Assembly: GCA_964586255.1 (NCBI GenBank)
Contig: CAZPGE010000005.1
Location: 12,775-76,774, forward strand
Length of the DNA: 64,000 bases
Direction of reading: 5' to 3'
Source: an uncultured Candidatus Saccharibacteria bacterium
GTDB lineage: Bacteria; Patescibacteriota; Minisyncoccia; Phycocordibacterales; UBA2100
In this document: positions 2,301 to 62,095 of the stretch, piece after piece
How the letters are laid out: each line of letters opens with the position of its first letter
How positions within the stretch are numbered: the stretch's first letter is position 1
The notes under the pieces: generated by a model
Database searches by the model: none
Seen by the model: only the letters and a program-made list of their open reading frames with translations
What the model was told of the DNA's origin: nothing
Made by a program: the position numbers and the translations under genes

Positions 2301-3989
2301 ATGAAAAAGCTCATCGTTTCCGCAGTCGCACTCGTAAGTCTTCTCGGTGCCTCAGTCGCATCAGCACAGACGTATTACTCTACCGGTACATATGGTGCAT
2401 CCTACGGATATGCCAACTGTGCGGGACTCACGCGAGATCTCTCCGTGGGCATGCGCGGAAGCGATGTATCTTCTCTCCAGAGCTTTCTCATCAGCCGTAA
2501 CTATCCGGGCGGTGGTAACTGGATGCTCACGGGCTACTTCGGCCGCGCGACGCAAGCTGCGGTGCAGAATTTCCAGCAGGAAAGGGGATTGCCACGAACA
2601 GGAATTGCTGACGCTGCGACCCGCGCTGCGATCTGTGGCGGTTCAGTCGTGAATCCATTCCCGACCTACCCGACCTATCCTACGCCGACATATCCCACAT
2701 ACCCGACATATCCGACCTACCCTACGTATCCTACGTACCCATCGGCCGTGACCATCACGTCGCTCTCGACGAATTCTGCAGCGCAGAATTCACCGGTCAC
2801 CATCTACGGTACGGGATTCGATTACAACACCAATACGGTGTACGTCGGCTCTATACCTCTTACAAATATTTCTTCGAGCAACGGAACGTCACTGAGCTTT
2901 ACGGTACCTTCGTACCTCACGGGCTCGGTACAGGTCTACGTGTCTAACTCGCGCGGGCAGAGCAATGCAGTCGCGCTCTCGGTAGTCCCATATGCCACTC
3001 CGTGCGGCACCTACCCATATTCGACCAACTGCAACACGTGCACGTACCCATACACGAACTGCCCAAGCGGTCAGCTCTCGATTCAGTACCTTTCGCCGAC
3101 GAGCGGTGCGGTAGGTACCTCGGTGACCATCTATGGCACGGGCTTCAGCTCGACGGGCAACACCGTGCGCTTCGGCCAAGGCATTATCTCGGGTATCAGC
3201 TCATTCGATGGTCGCTCACTCTCGTTCACCGTTCCGTCGCAACTTACCGGATTTGGTACGCAGAGCATCATGCTTGCAACCTACAATGTTTCGGTCCAAA
3301 ACAGCGCAGGGTATACGAGCAATGCACTGCCGTTTACGGTGACATCGCTTGGCTCTGTCGGCGCGCCGACAATCTCGAGCGTCTCAGGTCCCTCGACACT
3401 GGGTACGGGCGTAACGGGCTCATGGACGGTCCAGATCTACAACACACCGCAGAGTTACACCAACAATGTCACCGTCTCGGTCATATGGGGCGATGAGAAT
3501 CTGTACGGCGCACAAATCTCTCCGGTCCAGACTTCATACGCGCAGGGTAGCCAGACATTCACCTTCACTCATGCGTACGTACAGTCGGGTACGTATACAG
3601 TAAGATTTACGGTCACCAATGCCTCGGGCCAGACCAACAGCACGACAGCGACCGTCGTCGTGTCCGGCTCTAGCTCGGGCTCGCTCTCGCTCTCTTCCGC
3701 GACACCGTCTTCGGGTCGCGTAGGGACTCAGATTGTCCTCACGGGAAACGGCTTCAATGCCACCGACAACACCGTGTACTTCGGTGTCGGCGGTACGCAA
3801 CACCTTCCGTCGGTAAATGGCAACGTCATCTACTACACGATTCCGCAGTATGTTTCTCCGTGCGACGTCGTCACTTCTGGTCAGGTCTGCGCACAGTACT
3901 TCCAGCAGGTCACGCCAGGTGCGTATCAGCTGTACGTAAAGAACGGCACTGGTACAACCAACGCACTCACGTTTACGGTCACCCAATAA
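2301..3989 (+). CDS. Secreted cell-surface protein: signal peptide, PG_binding_1-like domain, TYP nonapeptide repeats, multiple IPT/TIG-like domains
   Basis: MKKLIVSAVALVSLLGASVASA signal peptide; peptidoglycan-binding-like LQSFLISRNYPGG...GYFGRATQAAVQNFQ; (P)TYPTYP x9; repeated VTIYGTGF...NTV(Y/R)FG blocks typical of IPT/TIG domains. Confidence 0.75.
   Translation: MKKLIVSAVALVSLLGASVASAQTYYSTGTYGASYGYANCAGLTRDLSVGMRGSDVSSLQSFLISRNYPGGGNWMLTGYFGRATQAAVQNFQQERGLPRTGIADAATRAAICGGSVVNPFPTYPTYPTPTYPTYPTYPTYPTYPTYPSAVTITSLSTNSAAQNSPVTIYGTGFDYNTNTVYVGSIPLTNISSSNGTSLSFTVPSYLTGSVQVYVSNSRGQSNAVALSVVPYATPCGTYPYSTNCNTCTYPYTNCPSGQLSIQYLSPTSGAVGTSVTIYGTGFSSTGNTVRFGQGIISGISSFDGRSLSFTVPSQLTGFGTQSIMLATYNVSVQNSAGYTSNALPFTVTSLGSVGAPTISSVSGPSTLGTGVTGSWTVQIYNTPQSYTNNVTVSVIWGDENLYGAQISPVQTSYAQGSQTFTFTHAYVQSGTYTVRFTVTNASGQTNSTTATVVVSGSSSGSLSLSSATPSSGRVGTQIVLTGNGFNATDNTVYFGVGGTQHLPSVNGNVIYYTIPQYVSPCDVVTSGQVCAQYFQQVTPGAYQLYVKNGTGTTNALTFTVTQ
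2651..2740 (+). repeat. Tandem 9-nt coding repeat (ACNTAYCCN)n encoding (TYP)n
   Basis: Sequence read: ttcccgacctacccgacctatcctacgccgacatatcccacatacccgacatatccgacctaccctacgtatcctacgtacccatcg. Confidence 0.6.
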
Positions 3990-5222: not shown

Positions 5223-5864
5223 ATGCGGAAGTTTGTTCTCTTTGATTTTGATGGAGTCATCGTCGATTCCTTGTGGCTCGCGTTTGGCACGGCACAAAAA
5301 GTCCACCCGCATTTCACGCTCGAAAAATGGCTCCCCATGTTTGAGGGCAACATCTATGCGAACTACGACCACTCAGAATGCACAGAGGCATGTAAGCCCG
5401 GTCAAGAGGATTATTTTTCAATATTTTCTTCACGAATAGGAGAGCTCGTCGCTTTTCCGGGTATGCCGGAGGTTGTCGCACAGCTGAGTGCGACATATGG
5501 TCTCGCAATAGTGTCGTCCTCGGTCTCGATGGATATCATGTCTACGCTGAAGCGTCTCGGACTCGATGCTCATTTTGCGGACGTGCTTGGTAAAGATGTG
5601 CATACGAGCAAGGTGGAAAAGATTAACTCTTTACTTGCGCGGTATGAGGCGAGAGCAGATGACTGTGTTTTTGTGACCGATACCTTAGGCGACATGCTCG
5701 AAGCGGAAGAAGCAGGGCTCGTAGCGATAGGAGTGTCATGGGGATTCCTTCCGAAAGAAAAGCTTATTTTGGGAAAACCGTTTCGCATCGTTGATACACC
5801 GCAAGAGCTGCCCTTGGCTATCGATGAATATTTCACATCCACAGAGGCGCAGTACAGCTCTTGA
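5223..5864 (+). CDS. HAD-superfamily hydrolase (phosphatase)
   Basis: Motif I FVLFDFDGVIVDS sits at the N-terminus when starting at 5223, and a later DTLGD is motif IV. The 5100 start of the ORF track is an upstream extension. Confidence 0.8.
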   Translation: MRKFVLFDFDGVIVDSLWLAFGTAQKVHPHFTLEKWLPMFEGNIYANYDHSECTEACKPGQEDYFSIFSSRIGELVAFPGMPEVVAQLSATYGLAIVSSSVSMDIMSTLKRLGLDAHFADVLGKDVHTSKVEKINSLLARYEARADDCVFVTDTLGDMLEAEEAGLVAIGVSWGFLPKEKLILGKPFRIVDTPQELPLAIDEYFTSTEAQYSS

Positions 5865-5928
5865 TGTATCGAATATTCCACAACATTTCTTCATACAGGA
5901 TGTAAGAAGTGGTTGGTATACTCCGTCT

Positions 5929-7437
5929 ATGCTCTTGATGAAGTCCCTCCGCTTTTTTCTGCTCGCACTCGTCTTTGTACTCCCTACGAGTGCCTCTGCA
6001 GCTCCGCCAGCCGGCGGATTTGAGGTGACAGGCTGGATACCATACTGGCGGACTGCTACGGGTACTGCCGATGTACTTCCGCATCTCGATTCACTCACCG
6101 AAATCAACCCGTTTGTCTACACGCTGAAGCAAGACGGCACCATCGTCGACAATGGCACTCTAGACGCTGAGCCGTGGCTCACGCTCGTCGCCGAGGCAAA
6201 AAAGAAGGGCGTGCGTGTGATACCGACTATCATGTCGAGCGACCGCGAATTCCTGCACCGAATCTTGAGTGACCAGAAGTCGCGTATCGCGCTCGAAGAC
6301 GATATCGCTGCGCTTGTAAAAGAAAAAGGCTTTGATGGCATCGACATCGATTTTGAAAATAAAAGCGCTGATACGAGAGAGTACTTCTCGACGTTTCTCA
6401 AGGGGCTCTATCAAAGGATGGGGAAGAAGTGGGTGATGTGCACGATTGAGACTCGCATCCCCAACGAAGATAGATACTACGGTACCGACATCCCGGCTGA
6501 TGCCAATATCTATTCCAACGACCTCAAGGAGATAAATAAATACTGCGACCGCGTCCGCCTCATGGCCTACGACCAGCAGGGTATCGATTTAAAATTGCAG
6601 GCAGATGCGGGTACGCGACTCTATGCGCCAGTCGGCGACCCTGCGTGGGTAGAGAAAGTGGTGAAGCATATGTCGAAAGACATAGCGAAGAGCAAAATCC
6701 TCATCGGTGTGCCGACCTACGGATATGAGTATGCCGTCACGGCATATGCCAACAATCAGTATGTGTACGACATTCTCTGGACCTTCAATCCTGGCTACGC
6801 GTATCCCATAGCGGCGCAATACGGCATTACGCCGGAGCGAGCATTTTGGGGGGAGATGGCGTTTAGCTATGTACCCGTCGCTGGCTCAAGCACGCCACCG
6901 GCAGCTGGCTCCGTGCCAGCGCTCGCCGCTGCCGCCGCTGCATCGCAGATTGCGACCGCGCAAAACACTAACCTCACGTTCCGGTATCTCGTGTGGCCAG
7001 ACGCAACCTCTGTGCAGCAGCGTATCGACCTCGCCAAGAAGCTCGGCGTGCGCGGTATCTCTGTCTTTAAGTTCGATGGAGGACAGGATCCTGGCATATG
7101 GGGTGTCATCGCGGGCGCGAAGGGCGCAACTACGGCACCGTCTACGCCGACGGGCACACCGACCGCAGGTGAACTCAAGCGCGGACTGGACCTGGGCATG
7201 ACGGGCGAGGACGTGCGTACGCTCCAGAGGATACTCAACGCGGATTCCGACACGCGTGTCGCGGCAAGCGGTGTGGGCTCAAAGGGTAAGGAGTCGACAT
7301 ACTTTGGCGCAGCGACGAGTGCGGCAGTGAAGAAATTCCAGATACAATACGGCCTCGCAAAAGCGGGAGACTCGGGCTATGGATTCGTAGGTCCGAAGAC
7401 GCGCGCCAAGCTCAATCAGATACTCTCCTCGCTCTAG
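5929..7437 (+). CDS. Secreted GH18-family glycosyl hydrolase (chitinase/peptidoglycan-hydrolase-like) with C-terminal PG_binding_1 domain
   Basis: Signal peptide MKSLRFFLLALVFVLPTSASA; GH18 catalytic motif FDGIDIDFE; C-terminal LQRILNADSD...GAATSAAVKKFQIQYGL peptidoglycan-binding repeat. TGGTATACT lies 6 nt upstream of the ATG. Confidence 0.8.
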   Translation: MLLMKSLRFFLLALVFVLPTSASAAPPAGGFEVTGWIPYWRTATGTADVLPHLDSLTEINPFVYTLKQDGTIVDNGTLDAEPWLTLVAEAKKKGVRVIPTIMSSDREFLHRILSDQKSRIALEDDIAALVKEKGFDGIDIDFENKSADTREYFSTFLKGLYQRMGKKWVMCTIETRIPNEDRYYGTDIPADANIYSNDLKEINKYCDRVRLMAYDQQGIDLKLQADAGTRLYAPVGDPAWVEKVVKHMSKDIAKSKILIGVPTYGYEYAVTAYANNQYVYDILWTFNPGYAYPIAAQYGITPERAFWGEMAFSYVPVAGSSTPPAAGSVPALAAAAAASQIATAQNTNLTFRYLVWPDATSVQQRIDLAKKLGVRGISVFKFDGGQDPGIWGVIAGAKGATTAPSTPTGTPTAGELKRGLDLGMTGEDVRTLQRILNADSDTRVAASGVGSKGKESTYFGAATSAAVKKFQIQYGLAKAGDSGYGFVGPKTRAKLNQILSSL

Positions 7438-16521: not shown

Positions 16522-19347
16522 ATGGCCGTCAATTGGAAAGATATACAAGATAGGTCCGAAAAGTTCGTTGTCGACTATCGTGACGCTAGGGATGAAGACA
16601 GGGACGCGAAACCATTCTGGAAGGACCTCATGACGCTCTACGGCGTTGAAGCGCGCTCCGTTGGAGCGTTTGAAGAGCGCGTGCGTGTCCACGGCAGACC
16701 AGGTGTCGGAAAAATAGACTATTTCGCGCCGCGGCAATTCCTCATCGAGCACAAATCGCGAGGCGAAGATCTCGATAAAGCATACAAGCAAGCGCTCGAA
16801 TATTTCGACTCGCTCGCGAGTGAGCTCCGCCCGCGCTACATCGTTGTCTCCGACTTCGCGCGTATCCGCGTGCACGACCTGGAAAAAGAAGAATCAGACC
16901 GCATCTCCGAGTTTGCGTTGGAAGAACTACCCTCGCGCGTGCGCGAGCTCGCATTTTTTGCGGAAGAAGACGTGCGTATCTACAAGCCAGAAGAGCATAT
17001 AGATGTAAAAGCAGTCCGTGTGGTGGGCAAGCTGCACAAAGCTCTCAAGACCTCCAATTATCCACAAGAAGATCTGCCGCGACTCCTTACGCGACTCGTT
17101 TTCTGTTTCTTTGCCGACGACATCGGGATATTCGAGAAAAATGCGATGCGACACTATCTCGAAGAGAACACCCGCGAAGACGGCGCTGATGTGGGTGAGA
17201 AACTTCACAATATCTTCGAAGTGCTCGACACACCCGACGGCACGGCAGGTTCACGCGATGAGCGCCAAGCGGGGACGCTCGATACGCTTCGTGACCTCCC
17301 GTGGGTCAACGGCGGCATGTTCAAAGGCCCCGTACGGCTTCTCCAGGGAGATAGGGAGATACGCGACATGCTCATCGAATGCATGTCTTTTGATTGGTCG
17401 CAGGTGTCGCCCGCAATATTCGGCTCTATGTTCCAGAGCATAATGAATGAGAAAGAAAGGCATGACCTCGGTGCGCACTACACGAGCGAGACCAACATCA
17501 AGAAAGTCATCAACGGACTTTTCCTCGAAGAATTGCAGAAAGAGCTCGACGTGGCTGCGACCAACAAAGACCGACTCAATGCATTGTGGGATAAAATTGC
17601 GAGAATCACGCTGCTCGATCCTGCCTGCGGTTGCGGCAACTTCCTCGTGATTTCGTACCGCGAACTCCGCACCATAGAGAACGAAATCATCCGCCGTATT
17701 CACGGGAGGGAAGACAAGCGCAGCGCTGCACATGCGCAGAGTCATGCCCGCCTCGGCCTCGCCAATGCTGATCTCGATACCATGTCGAAGCTCTCGATAG
17801 AGAGAATGTATGGAATAGAAATAGACCAGTTTGCGGCGGAGGTAGCTAAGCTTTCGCTCTGGCTCGTGGATCACAAGATGAACATCGAACTCGGTCGCAT
17901 TTTCGACCAGACGTTTAGAAAGTTGCCGCTCAAAGAGCAGCCGCACATCGTTCAGGACAACGCGCTGCGAATAGACTGGGAGAGCGTAGTCCAAAAAGAC
18001 AAGCTCACCCACATCCTCGGCAACCCACCATTCCTCGGTAAACATATGCAAACGCTCGAACAGAAGTCGGAACTACTAGAGGTGTTCGGTGGGGTACAGA
18101 ACGCCTCTGACCTTGACTACGTTGCCGCCTGGTATCGCAAAGCGACCGAATACATCCAGGGCACGAAAATCAATTGCGCATTCGTTTCGACAAACTCGAT
18201 CACTCAAGGGGAACAGGTGAGCATTTTATGGCCGGATGTGTTGTCTCGAGGGGTTCGGATTCAGTTCGCGCACAGAACGTTTAAATGGACAAATGAGGCC
18301 ACTGGAAAAGCGGCCGTGTACTGTGTAATCATTGGCTTCGGACTAACAGATGCTAAGCAGCCAAAACTGTTCGAGTATGACGATATCAGGGGCGAGCCGC
18401 GGATGGTCTTGGTCACACACATTAATCCTTATCTCGTAGATGCATCAAATGTTGTCGTAGAGAAGCGCCAGAGACCTTTGTGCGAAGTGCCGATAATGCG
18501 ATACGGCAATAAACCAAGTGATTCAGGCGCTCTCATTCTCAGTACAATGGAAAAAGATCGCCTAATCGTCGCAGAGCCGGTCGCTAAAAAATGGCTTAGG
18601 CCATATGTTGGTGCCGAAGAATTTTTGAATGGAGGTACCCGTTGGTGCCTATGGCTTGTTGGGATAACGCCTGATGAGTTGCGCGCAATGCCCGAGGTGG
18701 TGCGTCGAGTACAAGTAGTGAAAGACTTTCGCGAACTGAGTACTGCGAAACCCACCCGCGAGGCTGCCAAGACACCGTGGCTCTTCTTCTATGTCTCACA
18801 GCCCACAACCGATTACATTCTCATTCCTGAAACATCGTCGGAAAATCGGGAATGGATTCCCTTTGGTTTTGTATCTAAAGACGTGATATCGAGCAACGCA
18901 ACGTACCACATCCCCGAGCCTAATCTCTATGTTTTTGGTGTATTGCAGTCAACCATGCATATGGCTTGGGTTCGCACTGTGGCCGGTCGGCTAAAATCGG
19001 ACTATCGATACACAGGTAGCCTCGTCTACAACACTTATCCGTGGCCGGAAAAAGTGGGCGATGCGCAGAAAAAAGCCGTCGAAGACGCAGCGCAGAATGT
19101 TCTTGATGTGCGTGCAAAGTACCCCACCTCGACTCTCGCCGACCTGTACGACCCTCTCACCATGCCGCAAGATCTCCTCGTCGCACACAAGGCTCTCGAT
19201 AAAGCCGTCGACGCCTGTTACGGAGTGAAAGGTTTCAAATCCGAACCCGAACGTCTCGAATTCCTCTTTGAGCTATACAAGAAGCTCACTGCATCCGAAT
19301 CAAAGGAAGCGCCCGCCAAGAAATTCCACAAGAAAACCCTCTCTTGA
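16522..19347 (+). CDS. Type IIL restriction-modification enzyme, MmeI family (single-chain endonuclease + N6-adenine methyltransferase + TRD)
   Basis: Collinear with MmeI along its length: N-terminal AKPFW...IDYF...LIEHKSRGEDLDKAY (PD-ExK residues D..E.K), motif I LLDPACGCGNFLVISYRELR, motif IV ILGNPPFLGK, then FVSTNSITQGEQVSILWP and the C-terminal SLVYNTYPW...LYDPLTMPQDLLVAHKALDKAVD block. Confidence 0.9.
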   Translation: MAVNWKDIQDRSEKFVVDYRDARDEDRDAKPFWKDLMTLYGVEARSVGAFEERVRVHGRPGVGKIDYFAPRQFLIEHKSRGEDLDKAYKQALEYFDSLASELRPRYIVVSDFARIRVHDLEKEESDRISEFALEELPSRVRELAFFAEEDVRIYKPEEHIDVKAVRVVGKLHKALKTSNYPQEDLPRLLTRLVFCFFADDIGIFEKNAMRHYLEENTREDGADVGEKLHNIFEVLDTPDGTAGSRDERQAGTLDTLRDLPWVNGGMFKGPVRLLQGDREIRDMLIECMSFDWSQVSPAIFGSMFQSIMNEKERHDLGAHYTSETNIKKVINGLFLEELQKELDVAATNKDRLNALWDKIARITLLDPACGCGNFLVISYRELRTIENEIIRRIHGREDKRSAAHAQSHARLGLANADLDTMSKLSIERMYGIEIDQFAAEVAKLSLWLVDHKMNIELGRIFDQTFRKLPLKEQPHIVQDNALRIDWESVVQKDKLTHILGNPPFLGKHMQTLEQKSELLEVFGGVQNASDLDYVAAWYRKATEYIQGTKINCAFVSTNSITQGEQVSILWPDVLSRGVRIQFAHRTFKWTNEATGKAAVYCVIIGFGLTDAKQPKLFEYDDIRGEPRMVLVTHINPYLVDASNVVVEKRQRPLCEVPIMRYGNKPSDSGALILSTMEKDRLIVAEPVAKKWLRPYVGAEEFLNGGTRWCLWLVGITPDELRAMPEVVRRVQVVKDFRELSTAKPTREAAKTPWLFFYVSQPTTDYILIPETSSENREWIPFGFVSKDVISSNATYHIPEPNLYVFGVLQSTMHMAWVRTVAGRLKSDYRYTGSLVYNTYPWPEKVGDAQKKAVEDAAQNVLDVRAKYPTSTLADLYDPLTMPQDLLVAHKALDKAVDACYGVKGFKSEPERLEFLFELYKKLTASESKEAPAKKFHKKTLS

Positions 19348-52702: not shown

Positions 52703-52765
52703 GTTTTTCTAAAGCATTCCACATGCGGCGCCACGAATGTGGCGCCGCGCTGGTATGATTGGGCT

Positions 52766-55700
52766 ATGTCGAGCCTCGCAAGGCTATTCTTTCTTGTACT
52801 CATCAGTACATCTTTTTCGCTCCCGGGAAATGTGGCTGCGCTTTCGGCTGAGGCGAATGCGATGTGCAAGCCATACATCGCGGAGTGCCCGTGCAATCAG
52901 GTGCTGAATAAATGGAGGTTCATGCCCGGTCAGCCGAAGTGTAAGGCGGGTGGAGAGAAAAACGGCGCGGGATATAGCAATACACATGCGTGCAAGGTGG
53001 GTGTATGTAAAGACGTCACAAACGAACACGTGACACAGGGAGTGTGCATTGCGGCCGGGAAATGTGAGGGGAAGCTTGCAGACGACAAACCGGTACAAAA
53101 GACTGACGTGCCGGTGAAAGACGGCGATAAGCCGGTGACCGCTGAGCCGCCGCCTCCGCCATCGGTATCAGACACGGGTGATGTGACAGGTGGCATGCCG
53201 CAGAAACCGGAGGTGCCTGAGACGACTGTGCAAGACCCGACAAAGGACCTCCAGGAGACACCTGACACCGAAACCCCCATCCCGTCCGGCTCTGCGAAGA
53301 GTGTCGAAGATCAGTTGAAGGAAGCGGCAGGCGAGCCGAGTCTCTGGGAAAGGTGGTTTGGAGGTGAAACTACGCCGAAGCCGGAGACTCCTGCACAACC
53401 GGATGCTCCAGTGGGGCTCGACGGGCAGCCAGTGCAGACACTCCAGCCCGACGCAGTAGCCGACCCGCAATTGTCAGACACGGGAGTCGTTCAGACTCAG
53501 CCGGGAGAATCTACTCACACATTTGGTCAGCCTGAGGAGACCAAAACTGTCCCCGCGGAAGATGCTACGTGGTGGGGTGCGGTAAAAGATACTGCTTCTA
53601 ATGTTTGGGAGGGGGCGAAAGATATTGCGGCGAACGTGCGCGACACAGTGGCGGGCGCGTTTACATCGGATACACCATCGACTCCAAGTATCGGTGAGAT
53701 AGAGATGCCACCGCCGCCGGCGGAAGTGCCGACGTTAGCAGACACGACAACCGGTGGAACACCAGAGCCGGTACCCGCAGGCGCCAGCGCGGAGCCATCC
53801 GCGACGCAACTCAATACACCGGGAAATGTGGGACCAGTGCCGTATGCAGAAGAGCTTTCGAAACTTGGCTTCGGCAATGACTTGCTGGGAAGCAGGCTCA
53901 AAGAATTGAATGGACTTATTCAAAATGGCAATGATCGGATTGAAGCGGGAAATGCGGACCTCACAACGCGAAAAGAGTCGCTCGATGCGCAGTATGCGCA
54001 GCTGAAGAGCGCGTGTGCTGCGAATACGTGCACACAGTCACAAATAGACACATACAAAGAACGAGCAGCTGCGTACGACCGAGATGCAGCAACGCATAAA
54101 AAACTCGCAGAACAAACGAGGGAATACGTCGACTCCGCGAAAGCGATAGCCTCTGCATTGAACAAGCCAACAGACCTCTCTGCGTATACGGGACGCGTGC
54201 CTGATACACCGGAAAATAAGTTTGTGAGCGATGTATCGCGCGCGGCGCTCGGAGAAATATCGAGGCAAGAGGTGAATGCATTCTGGAACGATACGCCCGC
54301 AAGTGACCTGGTGACAGAGAGATCTCGAATCGCGGGGAATGCTTTTGAGGCGGCGACACACAATGTCACTCCATCACAAGTTGCCGACGCGTTTGGAGAT
54401 TCTGCGCGGCTCTCGGATATTCGGAATCAGACTGCAATTACAGCGGCACAGGAGCAGCTTCGACAAATAGAAACGATTCGTTCGGATACGCCGATTAGCC
54501 AGCTCACACCCGAGCAAGCGGACCTCCTCTATAGAGAGCCGCTCATACGCGAGGAGCTCACTCGACTCGAAAGTGAGTCGCAGTCTCGTGCAGAGAGGAC
54601 TGAGAATATCCAACACGCTCTCCGCAACAGTCAGTATGGAGAGCAGCTGGCGCGCGCGCTGACTACCGAACCAAAAACGCCAGTTGAGCGACTTATACAA
54701 GAGCAGCTCTATTTGAAAGCGGCGGAATTATCGCGCAACAACTTCGCCGCCGAATTGCTTAGGAATACGGAGCAAGCACCGACGGGGCTTACGCCGGAAG
54801 ATTATTACATCCCGGTGGATACCGGGAAAAATGTGTACACGGATGGGGCAGCACAAGCGGATAGGCATATCGGAGAATTGACGGGTGCTCTCAAGCCGTC
54901 ACCGGAAACACAGAGTCTCTTAGACCGCGTAAATGGCAACGAATCATTCGGCCGATATGCTCCGCGAGCGCTCGCTGATGCGACAAATTTCATCGCGGAC
55001 TTGCCCGCAAAAGGATTGGAAGCATTGGGTGTGAACAGCACGGTAGCACATGTGGCCAACGGCATTCTCAACCCGGTCAAATGGGGAGCGGCTGCCTATG
55101 ATGCGTACCTCACGCTTTCGGGCAACCCAAGTACAGAGAGAATGCTCAGCGAGTATGGCATGTCGTCTGGAGAGAGGACATTCGCGCGAGTGATGGATTA
55201 CGCGTCGATAGCTGGTGCGGTCGCCCCATCGCGTGCCCTCATGGGTCTTGGGTCGACCAATGAAATCGGTGTTGTGGCCGAATCGTCGCGCGCATTTACA
55301 TTGAGTGATTCGGTCGCGACGAATGCAGCACGTGTAGAATTGCCGGCGCGAGATTTCGGAGCGGGCGCGTATAAGCATGTCGGCGATACGCCGCTTGGTC
55401 CTGTCTATGCGGCCGACACGCTCCCGTCTGTAGCATCGAGGGTTTCAAACACGGAACGGCAAGCCATCGAAGCGCTTAGCGGCAGGTCGCTCACATCTGC
55501 CGACCGCACGATACTCTCGCAAGTGGGACTTGAAGCGCGGCCATACGGAACCGTACAGGCGGAAATAACGAGAGGTGCGGGCGTGGCGCAGATTACCGAA
55601 AGTGTAAACATCCAGCGAACGGCGCTGGTTAACGGCAATGGGGAAGTAGTGGCTGTCCAAAGCCGCGTCCTCGGCTCTGGCGCGGCAAATTTCGATGCAA

Positions 55701-58700
55701 TGGAAAGATTTGCAATCGTTGCAACTCCGGAAAACACAGGAGTATTCGCATCGCTGCGCCAGCAATTCGACAATTGGTTTGGCCGTTCGGAGCCGACTCC
55801 GAGCGCGCGGCCAACGACGGCAGATGCGACACCGTCTTCCGCTGGTGATACGACACCTTCGGCACGCCCCGCCGATACTCCGGCGCTCCTAGAGTCTCCT
55901 CGAGGCACGACTCCATCTCGTACCGCAGACGTGCCTGATGGTGCGGTGCCGACAACTCCTCGAACAGCTGCAACAGACGGGCAAATCAGCGAAATCGGTC
56001 GTCCACAAAATCTCCCAGATGCACCCGCTGCTCCTCGTGATGTCACGCCAGCGAATACGCCTGATGTCCCTGTGGTCCAGACACCCGACGCGCCTCTTGT
56101 ACCCGACGGAGCGCCAGGAGTGATTCCTGCAGAACCTCTTGCCTCTACTTTGCCGACTACTGGATGGAACCCGAGTGAGTCGCTTGCGAGATTCGCGAAA
56201 GCGAGTGTCGTAGCATTTGGTCTTCTTCACAGCCCAGTGTCTCCGCTTGTCGATACGGCCGTAGCCAGAGGTGTATCAGGCGTGCCGGGCACCGTCTCAG
56301 TAAAAGCCTGTCTTTCAGACTGGACGTGTCTTACGCCGGAGACGGGACTCGGTAAGCGATACGAATTGAACAACGTAGGGTCCAATGGCGGGAACAGGAC
56401 CGCATCTGGCTACCAGCCAGGGCCAAAGGACATGCTCATCGCTTCGCAGACATATCCACTCGGCACATATGGAGAGCTATGCAACGGCGGCAGATGCACG
56501 AAGGTATTTGTAGGCGACACAGGCAATTTCAATCAGGCAAAATATCGCTACGCCAAATTTGACCTGCTCCCACAAGTGTCTTCGGTCGTAGGTCCGACGG
56601 CTGCACAGGGGAGGACGACGATGACGTTTACGCCGTATGGAATAGCAAAGGTAGAAGATGCCGCGGCAATTACGCGAGCAATGAACGCGGGGACTGCATA
56701 CCCCGATGCGGTCGCGCAGATACAGAACAAAGTAATTGCATACGCGCCGGGGAAGAGCGTCGAGCCGACAGCTGTAGCACAGGCTGCGCCGCCCGTCCCG
56801 CAAACACCGACGAGAGTCGCAGATATATCGCCCGCAGTACCCGCAAGCCAGCCAGCGGCAGCGGGGGAGCCGCGGTCTGCTGGGCCTCGTACAGCACTTC
56901 CGGCAGAGCTCGACACTTCGACTTGGACCACGAGGCGCATAGTCGATTCTTTTGTGCCGACGAAGACACCGGTACAGGTCGTCGCTGCAGAGCTCGCGAA
57001 TCCTACGGCAGAAATAAATGCGCTTTCATCGGCGCTCGTCGCAGACGGAATCATCCCTCGAGGCTCGACGGTCACTGCGGCCGCGGATGGGACGACGAAT
57101 GTACGAATTCCGAGCGGGGAGGTGCAGACACTCAAGGTAGTGGTTCCCGAAGCACCTGCCAATCTCAATATCACAGCACCGCGTGTCAGTGTCGGCGAGC
57201 TCAGAAAAGTGTACGCGCAGACAAAGAGTCCCGACATAGGCCGGGTGCTCAGGGCAATTGATGAGCGCGGATTCAATACCGTCCCTGACCGCGCATTTTT
57301 GAACAACGACACTCTCAAACAGCTCGTCGGAGTCTTGCGCGACTACGACAGAATGTTCCCCGGTCAGGTGCCTATCATCAATGAATTGAGCGACACTATC
57401 GGGCGCCCCTTCTCTAGCACTCACACATTTGGTCAAGCTATCGACTTCCGTGCGCGCGAGTGGAGCCCGCAAGTGAAAGCGTTGCAGAATATCTTGCTCT
57501 CACATGGGATGGCGACCCCATATTCGCTCTTCCACGGTACCGGCCCGCACTTGCATGCGGACGGGGGAGAAGTGAAAGCCGCGGATGCCTCGAATCTCAA
57601 CATCTCATACAAGACCGCACCGCAATACGCGCTGCACGATGCAGAGGGTGCGCAGGTGGGGAAACAATTCGCGCTCGGTGGACCGAAAGCTGCGCCAGTA
57701 CCGCCGACAAAGGTGGCAACCGCCCCGCTCCCGAAGCCGTCTCCAGCCCAAGTCGCAATCGGTACATTTGAACCACCGGCGCCGACAAGACCCGGCCCCG
57801 CATTTACTGCGGACAATGTGCCGGCCGAATGGAAGCAGTCGCCAATCACTGTGGCGGAAGCGAAGCCTCCCGTTACAGCCCCTGAGCCTGCGGCAGTGAC
57901 CGTGCCTCCTGCGCCAAAGGCGCCTATCGCTAAACCCGCGCCGATTCAGGCTGCGGAGATTGTTCCTGTCCCGAAGCCACGACCAACTGTATCCTCGACG
58001 AAAGTACCTACAGTCACAAAAGCTGCGACTCGCAATGTTCAGCCGAAAGCAAAGAATCAGGTTGCAGTCACGAAGCAGTTGCCCCCTGTAGATACGCGGT
58101 CAGCCGATGAAATCGCAGCGCAGATGCTCGCACTCAACAACAAAGTAGCTGCACAACTGAAGGTTCCGCCCGCCGAAGCGATGCCGAAGCTTCTAGAGAG
58201 AAATACTAAAATTGGCCAGTCTCTGAAGTCCGTGCAGGCTATAAAGAGCGAGCTCGATGAGCTGGCTAATAAAGTAGTGAGTACGTCTTTGAAGTCTCAG
58301 ACACTCTATGACCAGGGCAACACCGCCGCTTCTAAGGTTGAAGGAAACAAAGTCCAACCTCTTTTCCAGCAACTCGTGGCGCATACAAAGCAACTTTCCA
58401 CGGAAGCTCTTACTGAGGCTGATATTAAAGCGGTGCAAGCAGCGGCCGGTCGTGCTAACTCGGCAGCAAATGTACTCGAGGACACCATTCATCCAGACAA
58501 GGTTGTGGGTATCTATATGAACTCGAAAAATCCCGACGGCACGGCAAAGTTTGCGGACCAAGCTGCATTCGTGAAGTACGTAAAGGGGCTGGCGGGGAAT
58601 TTCCGTGGCAGTGTGGCGCAAGTTTCGTCACCTTTGTCTACCAAGATCAAGTCGTATCAAGTGGAGATTGCTTCCAATGACGCTCTCCTCAATCAATCAA

Positions 58701-61700
58701 AGCAGTTGATGGCCGCAAAACTCAATGCGGATAGCTTGGGTGCCAAGTACGCGCTCGAGCAACTTGAAGGACAGAAAGCGACCGACGAGGCGAATGCGAG
58801 AATAGCGGCCCTCCCTCCTATTGCGGGCCTCGAGGACCTCCTCCAGTCGCCGATTGTTTCGCGAGAAGCTCGTGATGTACCGCTTTCAGAACTTTTTTCC
58901 GAGCTGAAGAATGACGTGTTGGCATTTGCACGGGAAGAGCTCGGCTTGTTTGGCGGTCCGGGTTCTGGGGGACGCACTGTCACCGTAGAGGTCGCGCCAT
59001 CGGTAAAAACTCCTGAAGTCGCCCCGGCGAAAGTTGCCGCGGTTGAAGTGCCCCCTGCTAAGAGTGCTCAAGTGCGGCCGGGGAGTGCCGCACCTACATC
59101 CGCCGTACCATCCTATGTGCCGCGCATCGCGCGATTTGGCACGGAACCTGGCACGGGACCAGTCGTGTATTCTACGCCGGCGAATATTCCTGTATTGCAG
59201 GCGCGCATGAATGTGGCGATTAGGCCTCGCAAGCCTGAAATACAAGCGGGAAGCGGAGGGCAAATATCCCCGACGCCGCGGCTCGAACCACTTCCACCGG
59301 TGCCGAGCGCAGAAGCTGCTGCGCTCGCGAGAGAGCAAGCCTTGCGTAACCCAATCGTAGGTACCGATGATTTTGCGAATTTCCCACGGCAAAAACTCGA
59401 GGGAGAGGATGCACTGCTGCAAGAGGCCGCGATTGCCAAATATGTATCAAACAAAGAGCAATTGCTCGATACGTATGAAGCCCATTTTGGTACGAAGGTC
59501 GTCAATCCCGACCTCGCGAGGCTGCTCTTCAGGGATATGGGCTATACGGGAGTCAATTCGGCCGCAGTACAAAAAGTTGTCGCCGACATGACCGACGAGC
59601 TATGGAAACGTGCGCTCGCAAACAACCCTGAAGATTATGTTGTCCTCTACACAGGTTCGGCTGGCTCGGGTAAATCAAGCTCGATAAACAACGTACTTCC
59701 TGAGATGGAGGCACGGGCCGCCGTGATTATGGATGGCACTCTCTCCAACAAGGTGCTCGCCGAGCAGAGAATTGCGGAAGCGCTCGCGGCAGGGAAGCAA
59801 GTTGAAGTCATTAATGTGTATCGCGATCCAGTAGACGCATGGAACAACGGCGTCATCGCTCGTATGAAAGATGCGCAGTCGATTGATGCTGGAAGAGTCG
59901 TACCCATATCGGTATTCGTAATGGGATATAAGCGTTCGATGGAAGTTGTGAATTCATTGCTTACCAATCCGCGTGAGGGTGTGCATGTGAGTTTGATAGA
60001 AAACGTGATTCCCGGCTCACCGAGTGAGATGAGTCCGGAGCGTTTCCAAAGCATCCGGTACTCATCGAGTATAGAGCGAACGATTCGCAACAACACCGCT
60101 GATCTTCTTGGGCGTGGAGAAATCACACCACGGCAGTACGAGGCAATCACGGGTGCGGAAGCGCCAGGCAAGCTCGCGCTCGTCGCCGACGAGCCGATCG
60201 TGCCGGTGGATAGAGAGATTCCATCTCTTACCGAGCCGGTAGCGACTGCTCCGGAGGGCCCTGTCGCGGCACTTTGGACAGGGGATGGTGTCGAGGAAAG
60301 GCTCGCATGGATACGCGGGGTGCCAGAGAGAGTCACATTAGGTCTGCAAAACTCAGTGAACAAAATTCGTGATCTAATTCCAAGCGTACAAGAGCAGACG
60401 TATCTTCCGCCTGCCGTGACACAAGCGGAGGCCGAGAGCCTTGCGCGGATAGAAGGGGCACTTCTCGATATAGACGCACGATTTCCACGGGAAGTACCCG
60501 ACGATGTGCTCGCCACACTTGAGAGAGAGCTGCAGCAGCAGGTGGCGGGGCTGAGACCATCTGAGATTGACACCATCGCGCAAAAAAGTCTCTGGCAGCG
60601 TACGAAAGAATTCTTCTCACCGAGTAAAGAATCGACCGGTGCCGCGGTGCGAGAGCCCGAGCAGCTCCAACTGCCGCTCGATGAGCCCGTACAATCGGGA
60701 CGACCGCAGGTCGATGCTACTCCCGAGCAGGTGCCAACCTCGCGCCAAGGGGAGCTCTTCCCCGAAGAGCAGCTAGAACTGCAATTCCCGACGACGGGGG
60801 ATTATGTTCAGGCGAATCTGCCGCTCGATGAGCCAGCGCAGCCGACTCGAATTCCTGACACACCAATCCAGCGTGAGCTTCCCCTCGAGTCGCCGCTTAC
60901 GGAGACGCAGCTCGAGCTCCCGCTCACTCAGAGACAGCCCGGTCTGATAGAAAGAATTCGCAATCGTATTGTAGGTACGTCGAAACCATCCGTCACCGAA
61001 CCCGTATCAGGTACAAACTATCGATACAATCCCGTCACCGACCGCTTGGAGCCAATCGCTGTCGCGCCATCGCCGGCATCGACACCGAGCCCGGCGCCAG
61101 CCGCGGAATCACGGTCGCTCACCGTGGGAAGTACCGAGGCATTCGGCGGGGCTCTACCGCCAGCAAGCGGGAAAACGCTCGCAGGGAAATTTGGCAGCGC
61201 TTCGTGGGGCACCGCAAAATTCCTGTGTGGTGGATGGAGGCGTGCAGCGTTTTGTGGCGCCGTGGGGACAGGAGTATATCTGACTGCTTCGGGGTCATCG
61301 GACCCAACATCGCCCGCAGCACCTACTGGGGGCAGTCAGCCAGGCACGGTGAGGCCGACGACTGCAGGTACTCAGACACCTACTGCGCCTTCCGCTCCAG
61401 GCACGACCCCTGCCGGCTCCGTATCGAGTCCAGTGACGCCTATACCAACACCGACTCCGACACCGACTCCGACTCCGACACCCGTCCCAACTCCTACGCC
61501 GACGCCGGCACCAGCTCCAAAACCAGGGAATCAACCAGCTCCTTCTCCTGCGCCGGTTCCGACGCCCGTGCCACTACCGAAGCCAAGACCGGACGGAGCA
61601 CCTGCGCCTGTGCCCGCACCGCAGCCTCAGCCGCAACCTGCTCCGGTCCCATCTCCTGCACCGGCACCGTCACCCGAACAGCCAACAAAGTCTGGCTCAG

Positions 61701-62095
61701 GAAGCTCGGCAGGCAGTATCGGGAGCCTGCTTGGCTCGCTCATGAACTATCTCGGTCTTGGAAACAATAGTCAGCCGAAGCCTGCGCAGCAGCCGACGAC
61801 GCCGACCCGAACTCCGACATCAACATCGACACCGACAACGGTAAAGCCGATTGTGTCGCTTGTGCCAAATCCTGCCCGTGTGAAAGCGGGATCGACCGCA
61901 GTGCTCTGGTGGGCAAGCATCGGTACGACAGAGTGCTCCGTATCGGATTCTGAAGGCACTGTGCTTGTGAAAGGTTCTTCGACTGGAAAGGCCACGACAG
62001 CAGCAATACAAGCAACATCAAAATTCACCGTGACCTGCAAAGCTCGTTCTGGCGAAGACGTCCGCGCGGAGACGACCGTCTCGCTCGCTGAGTAG
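52766..62095 (+). CDS. Giant secreted multidomain protein (about 3110 aa): Cys-rich N-domain, coiled coils, 3D domain, LAS-type Zn-metallopeptidase domain, zeta-toxin/CPT-like P-loop kinase domain, PT-repeat linker, C-terminal Ig-like domain
   Basis: One uninterrupted ORF. Signal peptide MSSLARLFFLVLISTSFSLPGNVAA starts at 52766, with TATGAT 6 nt upstream. The 3D-domain motif YGELCNGGRCTKVFVGDTGNF...FDLL is near 56.45 kb. The LAS motif STHTFGQAIDF (H-x6-D) ...HGTGPHLHADGG (H-x-H) is near 57.4-57.56 kb. Walker A VLYTGSAGSGKSS then AVIMDGTL is near 59.65 kb. (PT)n runs 61.44-61.52 kb. Confidence 0.8.
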   Translation: MSSLARLFFLVLISTSFSLPGNVAALSAEANAMCKPYIAECPCNQVLNKWRFMPGQPKCKAGGEKNGAGYSNTHACKVGVCKDVTNEHVTQGVCIAAGKCEGKLADDKPVQKTDVPVKDGDKPVTAEPPPPPSVSDTGDVTGGMPQKPEVPETTVQDPTKDLQETPDTETPIPSGSAKSVEDQLKEAAGEPSLWERWFGGETTPKPETPAQPDAPVGLDGQPVQTLQPDAVADPQLSDTGVVQTQPGESTHTFGQPEETKTVPAEDATWWGAVKDTASNVWEGAKDIAANVRDTVAGAFTSDTPSTPSIGEIEMPPPPAEVPTLADTTTGGTPEPVPAGASAEPSATQLNTPGNVGPVPYAEELSKLGFGNDLLGSRLKELNGLIQNGNDRIEAGNADLTTRKESLDAQYAQLKSACAANTCTQSQIDTYKERAAAYDRDAATHKKLAEQTREYVDSAKAIASALNKPTDLSAYTGRVPDTPENKFVSDVSRAALGEISRQEVNAFWNDTPASDLVTERSRIAGNAFEAATHNVTPSQVADAFGDSARLSDIRNQTAITAAQEQLRQIETIRSDTPISQLTPEQADLLYREPLIREELTRLESESQSRAERTENIQHALRNSQYGEQLARALTTEPKTPVERLIQEQLYLKAAELSRNNFAAELLRNTEQAPTGLTPEDYYIPVDTGKNVYTDGAAQADRHIGELTGALKPSPETQSLLDRVNGNESFGRYAPRALADATNFIADLPAKGLEALGVNSTVAHVANGILNPVKWGAAAYDAYLTLSGNPSTERMLSEYGMSSGERTFARVMDYASIAGAVAPSRALMGLGSTNEIGVVAESSRAFTLSDSVATNAARVELPARDFGAGAYKHVGDTPLGPVYAADTLPSVASRVSNTERQAIEALSGRSLTSADRTILSQVGLEARPYGTVQAEITRGAGVAQITESVNIQRTALVNGNGEVVAVQSRVLGSGAANFDAMERFAIVATPENTGVFASLRQQFDNWFGRSEPTPSARPTTADATPSSAGDTTPSARPADTPALLESPRGTTPSRTADVPDGAVPTTPRTAATDGQISEIGRPQNLPDAPAAPRDVTPANTPDVPVVQTPDAPLVPDGAPGVIPAEPLASTLPTTGWNPSESLARFAKASVVAFGLLHSPVSPLVDTAVARGVSGVPGTVSVKACLSDWTCLTPETGLGKRYELNNVGSNGGNRTASGYQPGPKDMLIASQTYPLGTYGELCNGGRCTKVFVGDTGNFNQAKYRYAKFDLLPQVSSVVGPTAAQGRTTMTFTPYGIAKVEDAAAITRAMNAGTAYPDAVAQIQNKVIAYAPGKSVEPTAVAQAAPPVPQTPTRVADISPAVPASQPAAAGEPRSAGPRTALPAELDTSTWTTRRIVDSFVPTKTPVQVVAAELANPTAEINALSSALVADGIIPRGSTVTAAADGTTNVRIPSGEVQTLKVVVPEAPANLNITAPRVSVGELRKVYAQTKSPDIGRVLRAIDERGFNTVPDRAFLNNDTLKQLVGVLRDYDRMFPGQVPIINELSDTIGRPFSSTHTFGQAIDFRAREWSPQVKALQNILLSHGMATPYSLFHGTGPHLHADGGEVKAADASNLNISYKTAPQYALHDAEGAQVGKQFALGGPKAAPVPPTKVATAPLPKPSPAQVAIGTFEPPAPTRPGPAFTADNVPAEWKQSPITVAEAKPPVTAPEPAAVTVPPAPKAPIAKPAPIQAAEIVPVPKPRPTVSSTKVPTVTKAATRNVQPKAKNQVAVTKQLPPVDTRSADEIAAQMLALNNKVAAQLKVPPAEAMPKLLERNTKIGQSLKSVQAIKSELDELANKVVSTSLKSQTLYDQGNTAASKVEGNKVQPLFQQLVAHTKQLSTEALTEADIKAVQAAAGRANSAANVLEDTIHPDKVVGIYMNSKNPDGTAKFADQAAFVKYVKGLAGNFRGSVAQVSSPLSTKIKSYQVEIASNDALLNQSKQLMAAKLNADSLGAKYALEQLEGQKATDEANARIAALPPIAGLEDLLQSPIVSREARDVPLSELFSELKNDVLAFAREELGLFGGPGSGGRTVTVEVAPSVKTPEVAPAKVAAVEVPPAKSAQVRPGSAAPTSAVPSYVPRIARFGTEPGTGPVVYSTPANIPVLQARMNVAIRPRKPEIQAGSGGQISPTPRLEPLPPVPSAEAAALAREQALRNPIVGTDDFANFPRQKLEGEDALLQEAAIAKYVSNKEQLLDTYEAHFGTKVVNPDLARLLFRDMGYTGVNSAAVQKVVADMTDELWKRALANNPEDYVVLYTGSAGSGKSSSINNVLPEMEARAAVIMDGTLSNKVLAEQRIAEALAAGKQVEVINVYRDPVDAWNNGVIARMKDAQSIDAGRVVPISVFVMGYKRSMEVVNSLLTNPREGVHVSLIENVIPGSPSEMSPERFQSIRYSSSIERTIRNNTADLLGRGEITPRQYEAITGAEAPGKLALVADEPIVPVDREIPSLTEPVATAPEGPVAALWTGDGVEERLAWIRGVPERVTLGLQNSVNKIRDLIPSVQEQTYLPPAVTQAEAESLARIEGALLDIDARFPREVPDDVLATLERELQQQVAGLRPSEIDTIAQKSLWQRTKEFFSPSKESTGAAVREPEQLQLPLDEPVQSGRPQVDATPEQVPTSRQGELFPEEQLELQFPTTGDYVQANLPLDEPAQPTRIPDTPIQRELPLESPLTETQLELPLTQRQPGLIERIRNRIVGTSKPSVTEPVSGTNYRYNPVTDRLEPIAVAPSPASTPSPAPAAESRSLTVGSTEAFGGALPPASGKTLAGKFGSASWGTAKFLCGGWRRAAFCGAVGTGVYLTASGSSDPTSPAAPTGGSQPGTVRPTTAGTQTPTAPSAPGTTPAGSVSSPVTPIPTPTPTPTPTPTPVPTPTPTPAPAPKPGNQPAPSPAPVPTPVPLPKPRPDGAPAPVPAPQPQPQPAPVPSPAPAPSPEQPTKSGSGSSAGSIGSLLGSLMNYLGLGNNSQPKPAQQPTTPTRTPTSTSTPTTVKPIVSLVPNPARVKAGSTAVLWWASIGTTECSVSDSEGTVLVKGSSTGKATTAAIQATSKFTVTCKARSGEDVRAETTVSLAE

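Follow-up and report, generated by a model that had tools for sequence, protein, structure and literature searches.

The giant open reading frame and its two modules

The subject of this analysis is a giant open reading frame (ORF) on the forward strand, at 52739..62095, of a 64,000-nucleotide stretch of contig CAZPGE010000005.1 from an uncultured Candidatus Saccharibacteria bacterium, a stretch that is referred to throughout as the window. The ORF specifies 3118 amino acids (aa) from a GTG start as called, and the same gene call is present in a Logan assembly. Two segments of the predicted chain are considered in detail. Module A (aa 1178-1345; 56270..56773, + strand) is assigned by its relatives, a profile, a structural model and Foldseek to the RlpA-like double-psi beta-barrels (DPBB; DPBB_1 type) and ends in a helical C-terminal extension, and module B (aa ~1520-1612; 57296..57574, + strand) is a probable LAS zinc peptidase of the M15A / Peptidase_M15_3 type, as suggested by its motif and by weak profile and pairwise matches. 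We propose that the giant protein probably opens a bacterial cell wall.

A first-pass annotation of this DNA had described two adjacent motifs, about 300 aa apart, in one giant protein within 56230-57580, and all of the strings concerned do fall in this ORF. The pattern TYPLG...GDTGNF...AKFDLL occupies aa 1238-1277 (nucleotides 56450-56569), STHTFGQAIDF lies at aa 1560-1570 (57416-57448) and HGTGPHLHADGG at aa 1599-1610 (57533-57568), with 283 aa counted between the module A motif and the module B motif.

Module A and the RlpA-like double-psi beta-barrels

An exhaustive phmmer search of 1.84 billion representative proteins recovered six relatives of module A with E values from 3.6e-16 to 2.9e-6, all of which cover aa ~1178-1376 alone. 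Against PF03330 DPBB_1 (the RlpA family, 'lytic transglycolase'), five of the six score 25-31 bits in comparison to a cutoff of 28.8 bits, with 31.3 bits for the relative designated P0006, and several of the relatives also possess PG_binding_1 or Peptidase_M23 domains. A profile built from module A and these six relatives (seven sequences of the giant-protein family; alignment A1) retrieved RlpA and PF03330-annotated proteins from a database of 5.8 billion sequences with E values down to 3.5e-7. In a second alignment of 19 sequences that included bona fide RlpA proteins (A2), residues Y1208, T1221, A1222, G1224, A1235, P1240, D1260, G1262 and D1275 were invariant, and these positions correspond to the RlpA-barrel landmarks ASxY, TAxGE, D-x-G and xDL.

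The AlphaFold2 model of module A computed on the 19-sequence alignment reached a predicted local distance difference test score (pLDDT) of 80.8 and a predicted template modelling score of 0.80. Foldseek comparison of the model to the PDB placed PA4485 (4avr) first (E value 8e-6, target-normalised template modelling score 0.79), with expansins of bacteria, kiwellins and designed DPBB proteins coming next, and in BFVD the leading matches were phage proteins resembling 'rare lipoprotein A', that is RlpA-like proteins. PA4485 was also the best match of a PDB sequence search, weakly, at an E value of 0.21. Homology and the predicted model together identify module A as an RlpA-like double-psi beta-barrel.

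The first-pass annotation had read the module A motif as the signature of a 3D domain, and this assignment is replaced by the RlpA-like DPBB_1 type, as it is PF03330 that the relatives match and not PF06725, the Pfam 3D family, which matched neither the module nor any of its six relatives. A lone '3D containing' protein stood at rank 13 among the 50 BFVD matches listed, behind several RlpA-like proteins. The 3D domains (PF06725; the C-terminal domain of MltA, YuiC) do share with module A the DPBB superfamily and a 'DTG...D-hydrophobic' pattern.

Two invariant aspartates of alignment A2 are of most interest for function. Asp1260 of GDTGNF (56516..56518, + strand) aligns with the Asp of RlpA 'NDRGP', and Asp1275 of KFDLL (56561..56563, + strand) aligns with the Asp of RlpA 'IDLS'. 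Because of its alignment with the RlpA residue, Asp1260 is the predicted catalytic acid of module A; the D157N substitution of P. aeruginosa RlpA, which lies in its DPBB domain, reportedly abolishes activity. By analogy, module A would act as a lytic transglycosylase on the backbone of N-acetylmuramic acid and N-acetylglucosamine, as the DPBB of RlpA is the catalytic lytic transglycosylase domain of that enzyme, which prefers denuded glycan (PMC6895207).

In comparison to the RlpA family (PF03330; P. aeruginosa RlpA; PA4485), module A shares the DPBB fold, the conserved positions and both aspartates, and it differs from that family in several ways. It has DTG in place of DRGP, an insertion after strand 1, a helical C-terminal extension of ~30 aa and two extra Cys pairs predicted to form disulfides (1191/1197 and 1248/1253), which are invariant in the seven sequences of A1. 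It also lacks a SPOR domain and a lipobox and is embedded in a chain of 3118 aa.

Module B and the M15-type LAS peptidases

The sequence pattern SxHxxGxAxD is the published zinc-binding motif of VanX/M15 hydrolases (PMC3315420, PMC13461873). When the whole window is translated in six frames, a single exact match is present, and it lies in module B (STHTFGQAID, aa 1560-1569; 57416..57445, + strand), where His1562 and Asp1569 are the predicted zinc ligands. By chance, 6e-4 such matches would be expected in the giant protein and 0.075 across all six frames. Downstream, the HLH element (His1604 and His1606; 57548..57556, + strand) aligns with H195-x-H197 of the Streptomyces albus G zinc DD-carboxypeptidase 1LBU and provides the predicted third zinc ligand, His1606. 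For the combination of SxHxxGxAxD with HxH 20-70 residues further on, the chance expectation falls to 1.3e-6 in the giant protein and 4e-3 in six frames. The whole giant protein contains 20 His residues, five of which are located within aa 1562-1606.

Searches of phage sequences returned M15-type proteins. Among 38,880 PHROG families, the core of module B matched one alone, phrog_894 'endolysin', with an E value of 0.0079 (0.029 for a longer query). A tblastn search of module B against 50,697 phage genomes gave weak best matches (E values 0.2-5), and these were the N-termini of T7-gp16-like internal virion proteins from Autographiviridae phages of Stenotrophomonas and Xanthomonas. These N-termini match Peptidase_M15_3 (PF08291) above threshold, with E values of 2e-7 and 8e-8, and phrog_894 with an E value of 1.9e-8, and they have the string HGTGPH[IL]H in common with module B. 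In a pairwise BLASTP comparison, module B aligned with a phage M15_3 domain at an E value of 8e-8 over a region spanning both metal motifs. An endolysin with PF08291 from a Flavobacterium phage, which was reached via the phage domain and not chosen by likeness to module B, gave a pairwise E value of 2e-4 in an alignment covering the preceding helix ('VLRDY'), a strand and the zinc motif.

The comparison to 1LBU was in agreement with the metal-site assignment. A profile of module B and six phage M15 domains matched 1LBU with an E value of 1.3e-6, and module B alone matched the 1LBU segment with an E value of 0.004. H1562, D1569, H1604 and H1606 stood in register with H154, D161, H195 and H197, respectively, and in both proteins the HxH is followed by GG. 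The distance from the Asp to HxH is 35 residues in module B in comparison to 34 in 1LBU. We considered an M23 reading of the string GTGPHLH and rejected it: M23 peptidases have HxxxD as their first motif, whereas the first motif of module B is H-x6-D and its 35-residue spacing fits M15A and not M23.

Module B resembles the M15A and Peptidase_M15_3 proteins (1LBU; PF08291 phage endolysins; the N-terminal domain of the internal virion proteins of Stenotrophomonas phage BUCT700 and Xanthomonas phage SB1) in SxHxxGxAxD, in HxH and in the helix and strand that precede the motif. It differs from them in that identity is 27-36% over only ~60 residues, in the deletion of the 'GYRS' element and in having no homologues of its own. 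The T7-gp16-like proteins that begin with Peptidase_M15_3 are encoded at L025 2905-3200 and L026 2860-3150 (Stenotrophomonas and Xanthomonas Autographiviridae), and the 'transglycosylase' label that the internal virion protein bears in the SB1 (L026) and BUCT598 records is probably a mis-annotation.

Weighing the two assignments

A number of results weigh against the interpretation of modules A and B as a pair of wall-cleaving enzymes, and most of them concern module B. Neither module gave a Pfam match of its own even at E<=10, and for module A it is also relevant that non-enzymatic DPBB proteins exist, with expansins and kiwellins among its fold matches. NCBIfam gave nothing relevant and the PDB sequence search nothing meaningful for module B, and the exhaustive phmmer search found no relatives of it. 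Homologues of module B were likewise absent from genome and metagenome scans, and tblastn detected no relative of it in any of the 2 and 21 loci obtained from scans with alignment A3. A word-index protein search with module B alone yielded 30 candidates and no match, the query itself being unreturned; when both modules and the linker were used, 8000 candidates were drawn and none scored, probably as the search was swamped by the Pro/Ala-rich linker. As the word-index search never returned the giant protein itself, its negative results for module B are weaker than they appear.

Model-based comparisons also gave points against the assignment of module B. Its single-sequence AlphaFold model was unusable (pLDDT 42). 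A hidden Markov model (HMM) of M15 domains that included the Stenotrophomonas and Xanthomonas phage seeds detected module B with an E value of 0.0026 among 551 window ORFs, a value to be read with the knowledge that both seeds had themselves been found through a module B query; when these seeds were removed, the E value was 5 and not significant. The hhalign comparison of module B to an unbiased five-sequence M15 profile gave a P value of only 0.01. In addition, the 'GYRS' element, which carries the substrate-carboxylate Arg (R138 of 1LBU), corresponds to a five-residue deletion in module B according to both MAFFT and BLASTP. R138 is the substrate-binding Arg of M15A enzymes, where it contacts the carboxylate (PMC13461873), and the deletion therefore points to a change of substrate mode or to lower activity in module B.

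Several of these results, namely the lack of any Pfam, NCBIfam or PDB sequence match and of homologues, the model at pLDDT 42 and the E value of 5 with the unbiased HMM, favour a reading in which module B does not belong to the LAS domains, the motif having arisen by coincidence in a lineage-specific domain of another fold and module A alone being muralytic. Against this stand the joint motif expectation of 1.3e-6 and the fact that the weak and independent matches all point to M15, including phrog_894 (E value 0.008), the phage M15_3 domains, the collinear 1LBU and the Flavobacterium phage endolysin (E value 2e-4). We consider coincidence unlikely and regard module B as probably a LAS/M15 domain on these sequence grounds. 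It would bind zinc via His1562, Asp1569 and His1606, His1604 would also belong to the active site, and the bond cut would be an amide, either in the stem peptide or in the cross-link.

The first-pass annotation had called module B a LAS metallopeptidase motif, and of this claim the exact M15 zinc motif and the weak profile and pairwise matches stand, whereas a match to a Pfam model is missing. Its broader suggestion that a glycan-directed module sits next to a peptide-directed module in one chain holds in its core idea, module B being the more weakly supported half. Structure or profile searches, which it had named as the means of refutation, upheld module A, and module B came through them weakly, by profiles alone and with a model of pLDDT 42.

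A further reading accepts both folds and denies catalysis to one or both of them: module A could be an expansin-like or glycan-binding DPBB and module B a binding or regulatory LAS domain resembling the LytM factors, so that the pair would tether the protein to peptidoglycan. The presence of expansins, kiwellins and PA4485, whose function is unknown, among the closest folds of module A and the missing M15A Arg element in module B are consistent with such a role. Degenerate LAS domains usually lose their ligands, whereas in module B all three predicted zinc ligands (3/3) and the extra His of HxH are intact, and module A has kept both invariant Asp residues of the RlpA family. Catalytically dead LytM-type domains that serve as regulators are on record in a preprint (bioRxiv 10.1101/2022.09.10.507391), and this precedent also favours a non-catalytic role. 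Overall, we think it quite unlikely that either module serves for binding or regulation alone.

Export signal, linkers and a Zeta-toxin-like kinase domain

The giant protein begins with a predicted signal peptide or signal anchor, MSSLARLFFLVLISTSFSLPGNVAALSAE (52766..52852, + strand), identified in a hydropathy scan in which aa 10-34 formed the only strongly hydrophobic segment of the whole protein. An ATG codon at 52766 (aa 10) lies immediately before the signal peptide, and translation may actually begin at this codon and not at the GTG at 52739. The signal is followed by a Cys-rich N-terminal module with eight Cys residues (52856..53068, + strand) that has no Pfam family match; similar Cys-rich N-termini were seen by eye, without statistics, in the relatives P0001-P0005. 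Cys residues of the giant protein occur in close pairs, as they do in exported proteins. From the single N-terminal hydrophobic segment and the paired Cys, the giant protein is predicted to be a modular protein exported by the Sec pathway.

Globular parts of the chain are spaced by Pro/Ala/Thr-rich linkers, and the long segments between modules that are not rich in proline are probably helical. At the C-terminus, a domain of ~85 aa (61844..62086, + strand) is common to the giant relatives P0005 (45% identity) and P0006 (37% identity); it has no Pfam match and is probably beta-rich or Ig-like.

When the whole giant protein was compared to Pfam, Zeta_toxin was the sole match and none was obtained for modules A and B. 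The Zeta-toxin-like P-loop kinase domain occupies aa 2283-2410 (59585..59968, + strand), with the PF06414 match at aa 2323-2407 scoring 30.7 bits in comparison to a cutoff of 22.3 and a Walker A sequence, GSAGSGKSS, at 59654-59680. Its best PDB match was the gonococcal Zeta_1 toxin 6eph, a weak one with an E value of 0.05. An exported toxin-type kinase that depends on ATP would make sense only if it were delivered into another cell. A literature search on Saccharibacteria and zeta toxin found nothing in the collection of papers searched. The linker after the kinase domain contains the short repeats 'LPLDEP / ELPLE / LELPL' at 60650-60900 (aa ~2640-2720).

Genomic neighbourhood and relatives

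The gene order at the locus is GroES/GroEL, a hypothetical gene, the giant gene, LemA and an M48 peptidase, and the same flanks are found in a public Logan assembly, with GroES/GroEL upstream and LemA and M48 downstream. SBP_bac_5, RNase J and D-Ala-D-Ala ligase (Ddl) are further chromosomal genes of the neighbourhood. The guanine-plus-cytosine (GC) content at the giant locus is 0.53-0.60, near that of the remaining window. At >=90% identity, RNase J and LemA fall into clusters with proteins from a metagenome-assembled genome (MAG) labelled 'Minisyncoccota bacterium', Minisyncoccota being the CPR (candidate phyla radiation), or Patescibacteria, phylum. The relative P0005, from the locus L002, is the giant protein of an uncultured Ca. 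Saccharibacteria MAG in which the order of giant gene, LemA and M48 is kept, and upstream of the giant gene the window, L002 and L005 have non-homologous genes. From this synteny with the Saccharibacteria MAG together with the divergence of the proteins, the giant gene appears to be a CPR locus that is conserved in position and evolves very fast.

A DPBB and a LAS-type peptidase are paired again in the relative P0006, which combines DPBB_1 with Peptidase_M23. A phage-like metagenomic ORF at L006 5731-7698 carries Peptidase_M23 (56.6 bits) and a DPBB_1-like module, an independent instance of LAS and DPBB paired. A DPBB_1-like module is also present in an ORF at L012 4017-6899 that, like that of L006, resembles a phage tail or tape-measure protein, and both contain the motif 'VNDVGxGVKGH..NHMLD[LF]S'. 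A VanY-like segment noticed by eye in P0005 (aa ~1215-1325, 'IMAGYRD...SYHGG...GQAADI...DAPHV') gained no support from BLASTP, the PDB or Pfam and is unused as evidence.

The phage likenesses raise the question of whether the giant gene is left over from a mobile element or carried by one, for example as a phage tape-measure protein, a virion lysin or a conjugative 'polyvalent protein' whose modules aid the entry of DNA or of particles. The nearest relatives of module B lie in internal virion proteins of phages, the phage-like ORFs of L006 and L012 carry a DPBB with or without M23, and Zeta-toxin domains are typical of polyvalent proteins. The locus itself argues otherwise: the flanks are GroES/GroEL, LemA, M48, RNase J and Ddl, with no phage or conjugation genes flanking, no tRNA was found in the window, synteny extends to a distant CPR genome and the GC content is near that of the window. 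Moreover, among the window ORFs scanned against Pfam, which are a part of all its ORFs, there was no type IV secretion system (T4SS) or phage gene. We therefore judge a mobile-element origin to be highly improbable.

The same neighbourhood is better suited to a housekeeping autolysin, in which case the giant protein would remodel the organism's own wall during growth, division or the insertion of surface structures. RlpA is a division-site enzyme (PMC6895207), and an RlpA-like module is accordingly a point in favour of this role. The housekeeping surroundings and the conserved position next to LemA and M48 in the Saccharibacteria MAG suggest a vertically inherited core function, and the presence of Ddl and GlmS in the window indicates that the organism has its own peptidoglycan pathway. 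Conversely, a length of 3118 aa, a Zeta-like kinase in an exported chain and the extreme divergence from one relative to another are better suited to an interaction protein that evolves fast than to a core autolysin, and the family is tiny and patchy, with six representatives in 1.84 billion. We regard an autolysin as possible though not probable; were it correct, the protein would have an ordinary function in an unusual package.

In addition to Ddl and GlmS, the window encodes two other predicted wall-directed proteins, one with GH18 and PG_binding_1 domains (5791-7437, + strand) and one with PG_binding_1, TIG and PKD domains (2301-3989, + strand). On the evidence of these domain matches, several peptidoglycan-binding proteins are encoded by the organism. 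At 16522-19347 (+ strand) lies a restriction-modification enzyme of the MmeI type (type IIL), which is complete and has the full set of five MmeI Pfam domains. This ORF enters the sole low-GC stretch of the window (0.46-0.48 at 18-22 kb in comparison to ~0.55 elsewhere), and the low GC content therefore suggests horizontal acquisition.

Proposed function and comparison to known systems

On balance, we favour the interpretation that modules A and B form a pair of peptidoglycan-cleaving modules in a giant, Sec-exported CPR/Patescibacteria protein that most likely acts on the wall of another cell. The modules would be strung on a thread attached to the cell surface or set free there and would be spaced by proline-rich linkers and long segments. 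Module A would attack the glycan strand via Asp1260, and module B, as a highly divergent M15A/Peptidase_M15_3-like LAS zinc peptidase, would attack the peptide network. If both glycan and peptide network were cut at one spot, a local hole in the sacculus could result. Catalysis by either module, the bond specificity and the target wall are our inferences from the comparisons described above.

The wall of another cell, either a host or a competitor, is the most likely target, and the organism's own wall is a possible one. A foreign wall is put forward because CPR bacteria live attached to host cells and because the Zeta-like kinase would need ATP; the episymbiotic lifestyle of CPR, the presence of a kinase in an exported chain and the rapid divergence of the protein likewise favour it.

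Proteins that join a glycan cleaver to a peptidase in one chain are known from several systems. Phage phi29 gp13 combines a lysozyme with M23, and CwlP of the B. subtilis prophage SP-beta combines SLT with M23. Two-domain VirB1-type hydrolases (PrgK/TraG) belong to the T4SS of monoderm bacteria, and VirB1 homologues bearing M23 occur in Patescibacteria (PMC12102498). The giant protein resembles these dual muralytic proteins in the pairing of activities and in the local hole that would be made in the sacculus, and it resembles phage virion-associated lysins, which also cut glycan and peptide together. It differs from the dual muralytic proteins in having a DPBB rather than a lysozyme or SLT domain and an M15-like rather than an M23 or CHAP domain, in its far longer chain and in its Zeta-like kinase.

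The first-pass annotation had likened the two motifs to phage endolysins of dual activity. Two-domain endolysins do share the pairing of two wall-cleaving domains, and this part of the likeness stands. The remainder does not, as the gene is chromosomal and its 3118-aa product bears a signal peptide, a Zeta-like kinase and long linkers. An identity as phage endolysin was therefore rejected, given also the chromosomal neighbours, the Sec signal, the synteny in a CPR MAG and the lack of a holin or lysis cassette at the locus. The features that appear to be new are the combination of an RlpA-like DPBB with an M15A-like LAS domain, the extreme divergence of the latter and their occurrence in a giant chromosomal CPR protein with a Zeta-like kinase.

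A more specific and speculative version of the proposal sees in the giant protein a weapon that an episymbiotic CPR bacterium would direct at its host and that would turn three activities, united in a single exported chain, on the peptidoglycan pathway. The DPBB and the M15-like module would breach the wall of the partner and the Zeta-like kinase would then be delivered to the partner's cytoplasm, where it would block the supply of wall precursors. We put this forward tentatively, as an account that is rather unlikely to be correct in full. If it were true, the polyvalent proteins that phages and conjugative elements carry would have a chromosomal, Sec-exported counterpart in this protein, and the difference in peptidase between relatives (M23 in P0006, M15-like here) would be an adaptation to host walls of different kinds.

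In summary, the giant protein and its relatives may be of value in two respects. Module B, if it is a LAS domain, is invisible to Pfam, NCBIfam and PDB sequence searches and would be a useful seed for widening the family. Muralytic enzymes are essential for epibiotic growth in one cultivated Patescibacteria strain (PMC12102498), and the means by which ultrasmall CPR/Patescibacteria attach to, feed on or kill their hosts are largely unexplained. The giant protein and its relatives provide a candidate wall-opening factor for these processes, with defined residues that can be mutated.

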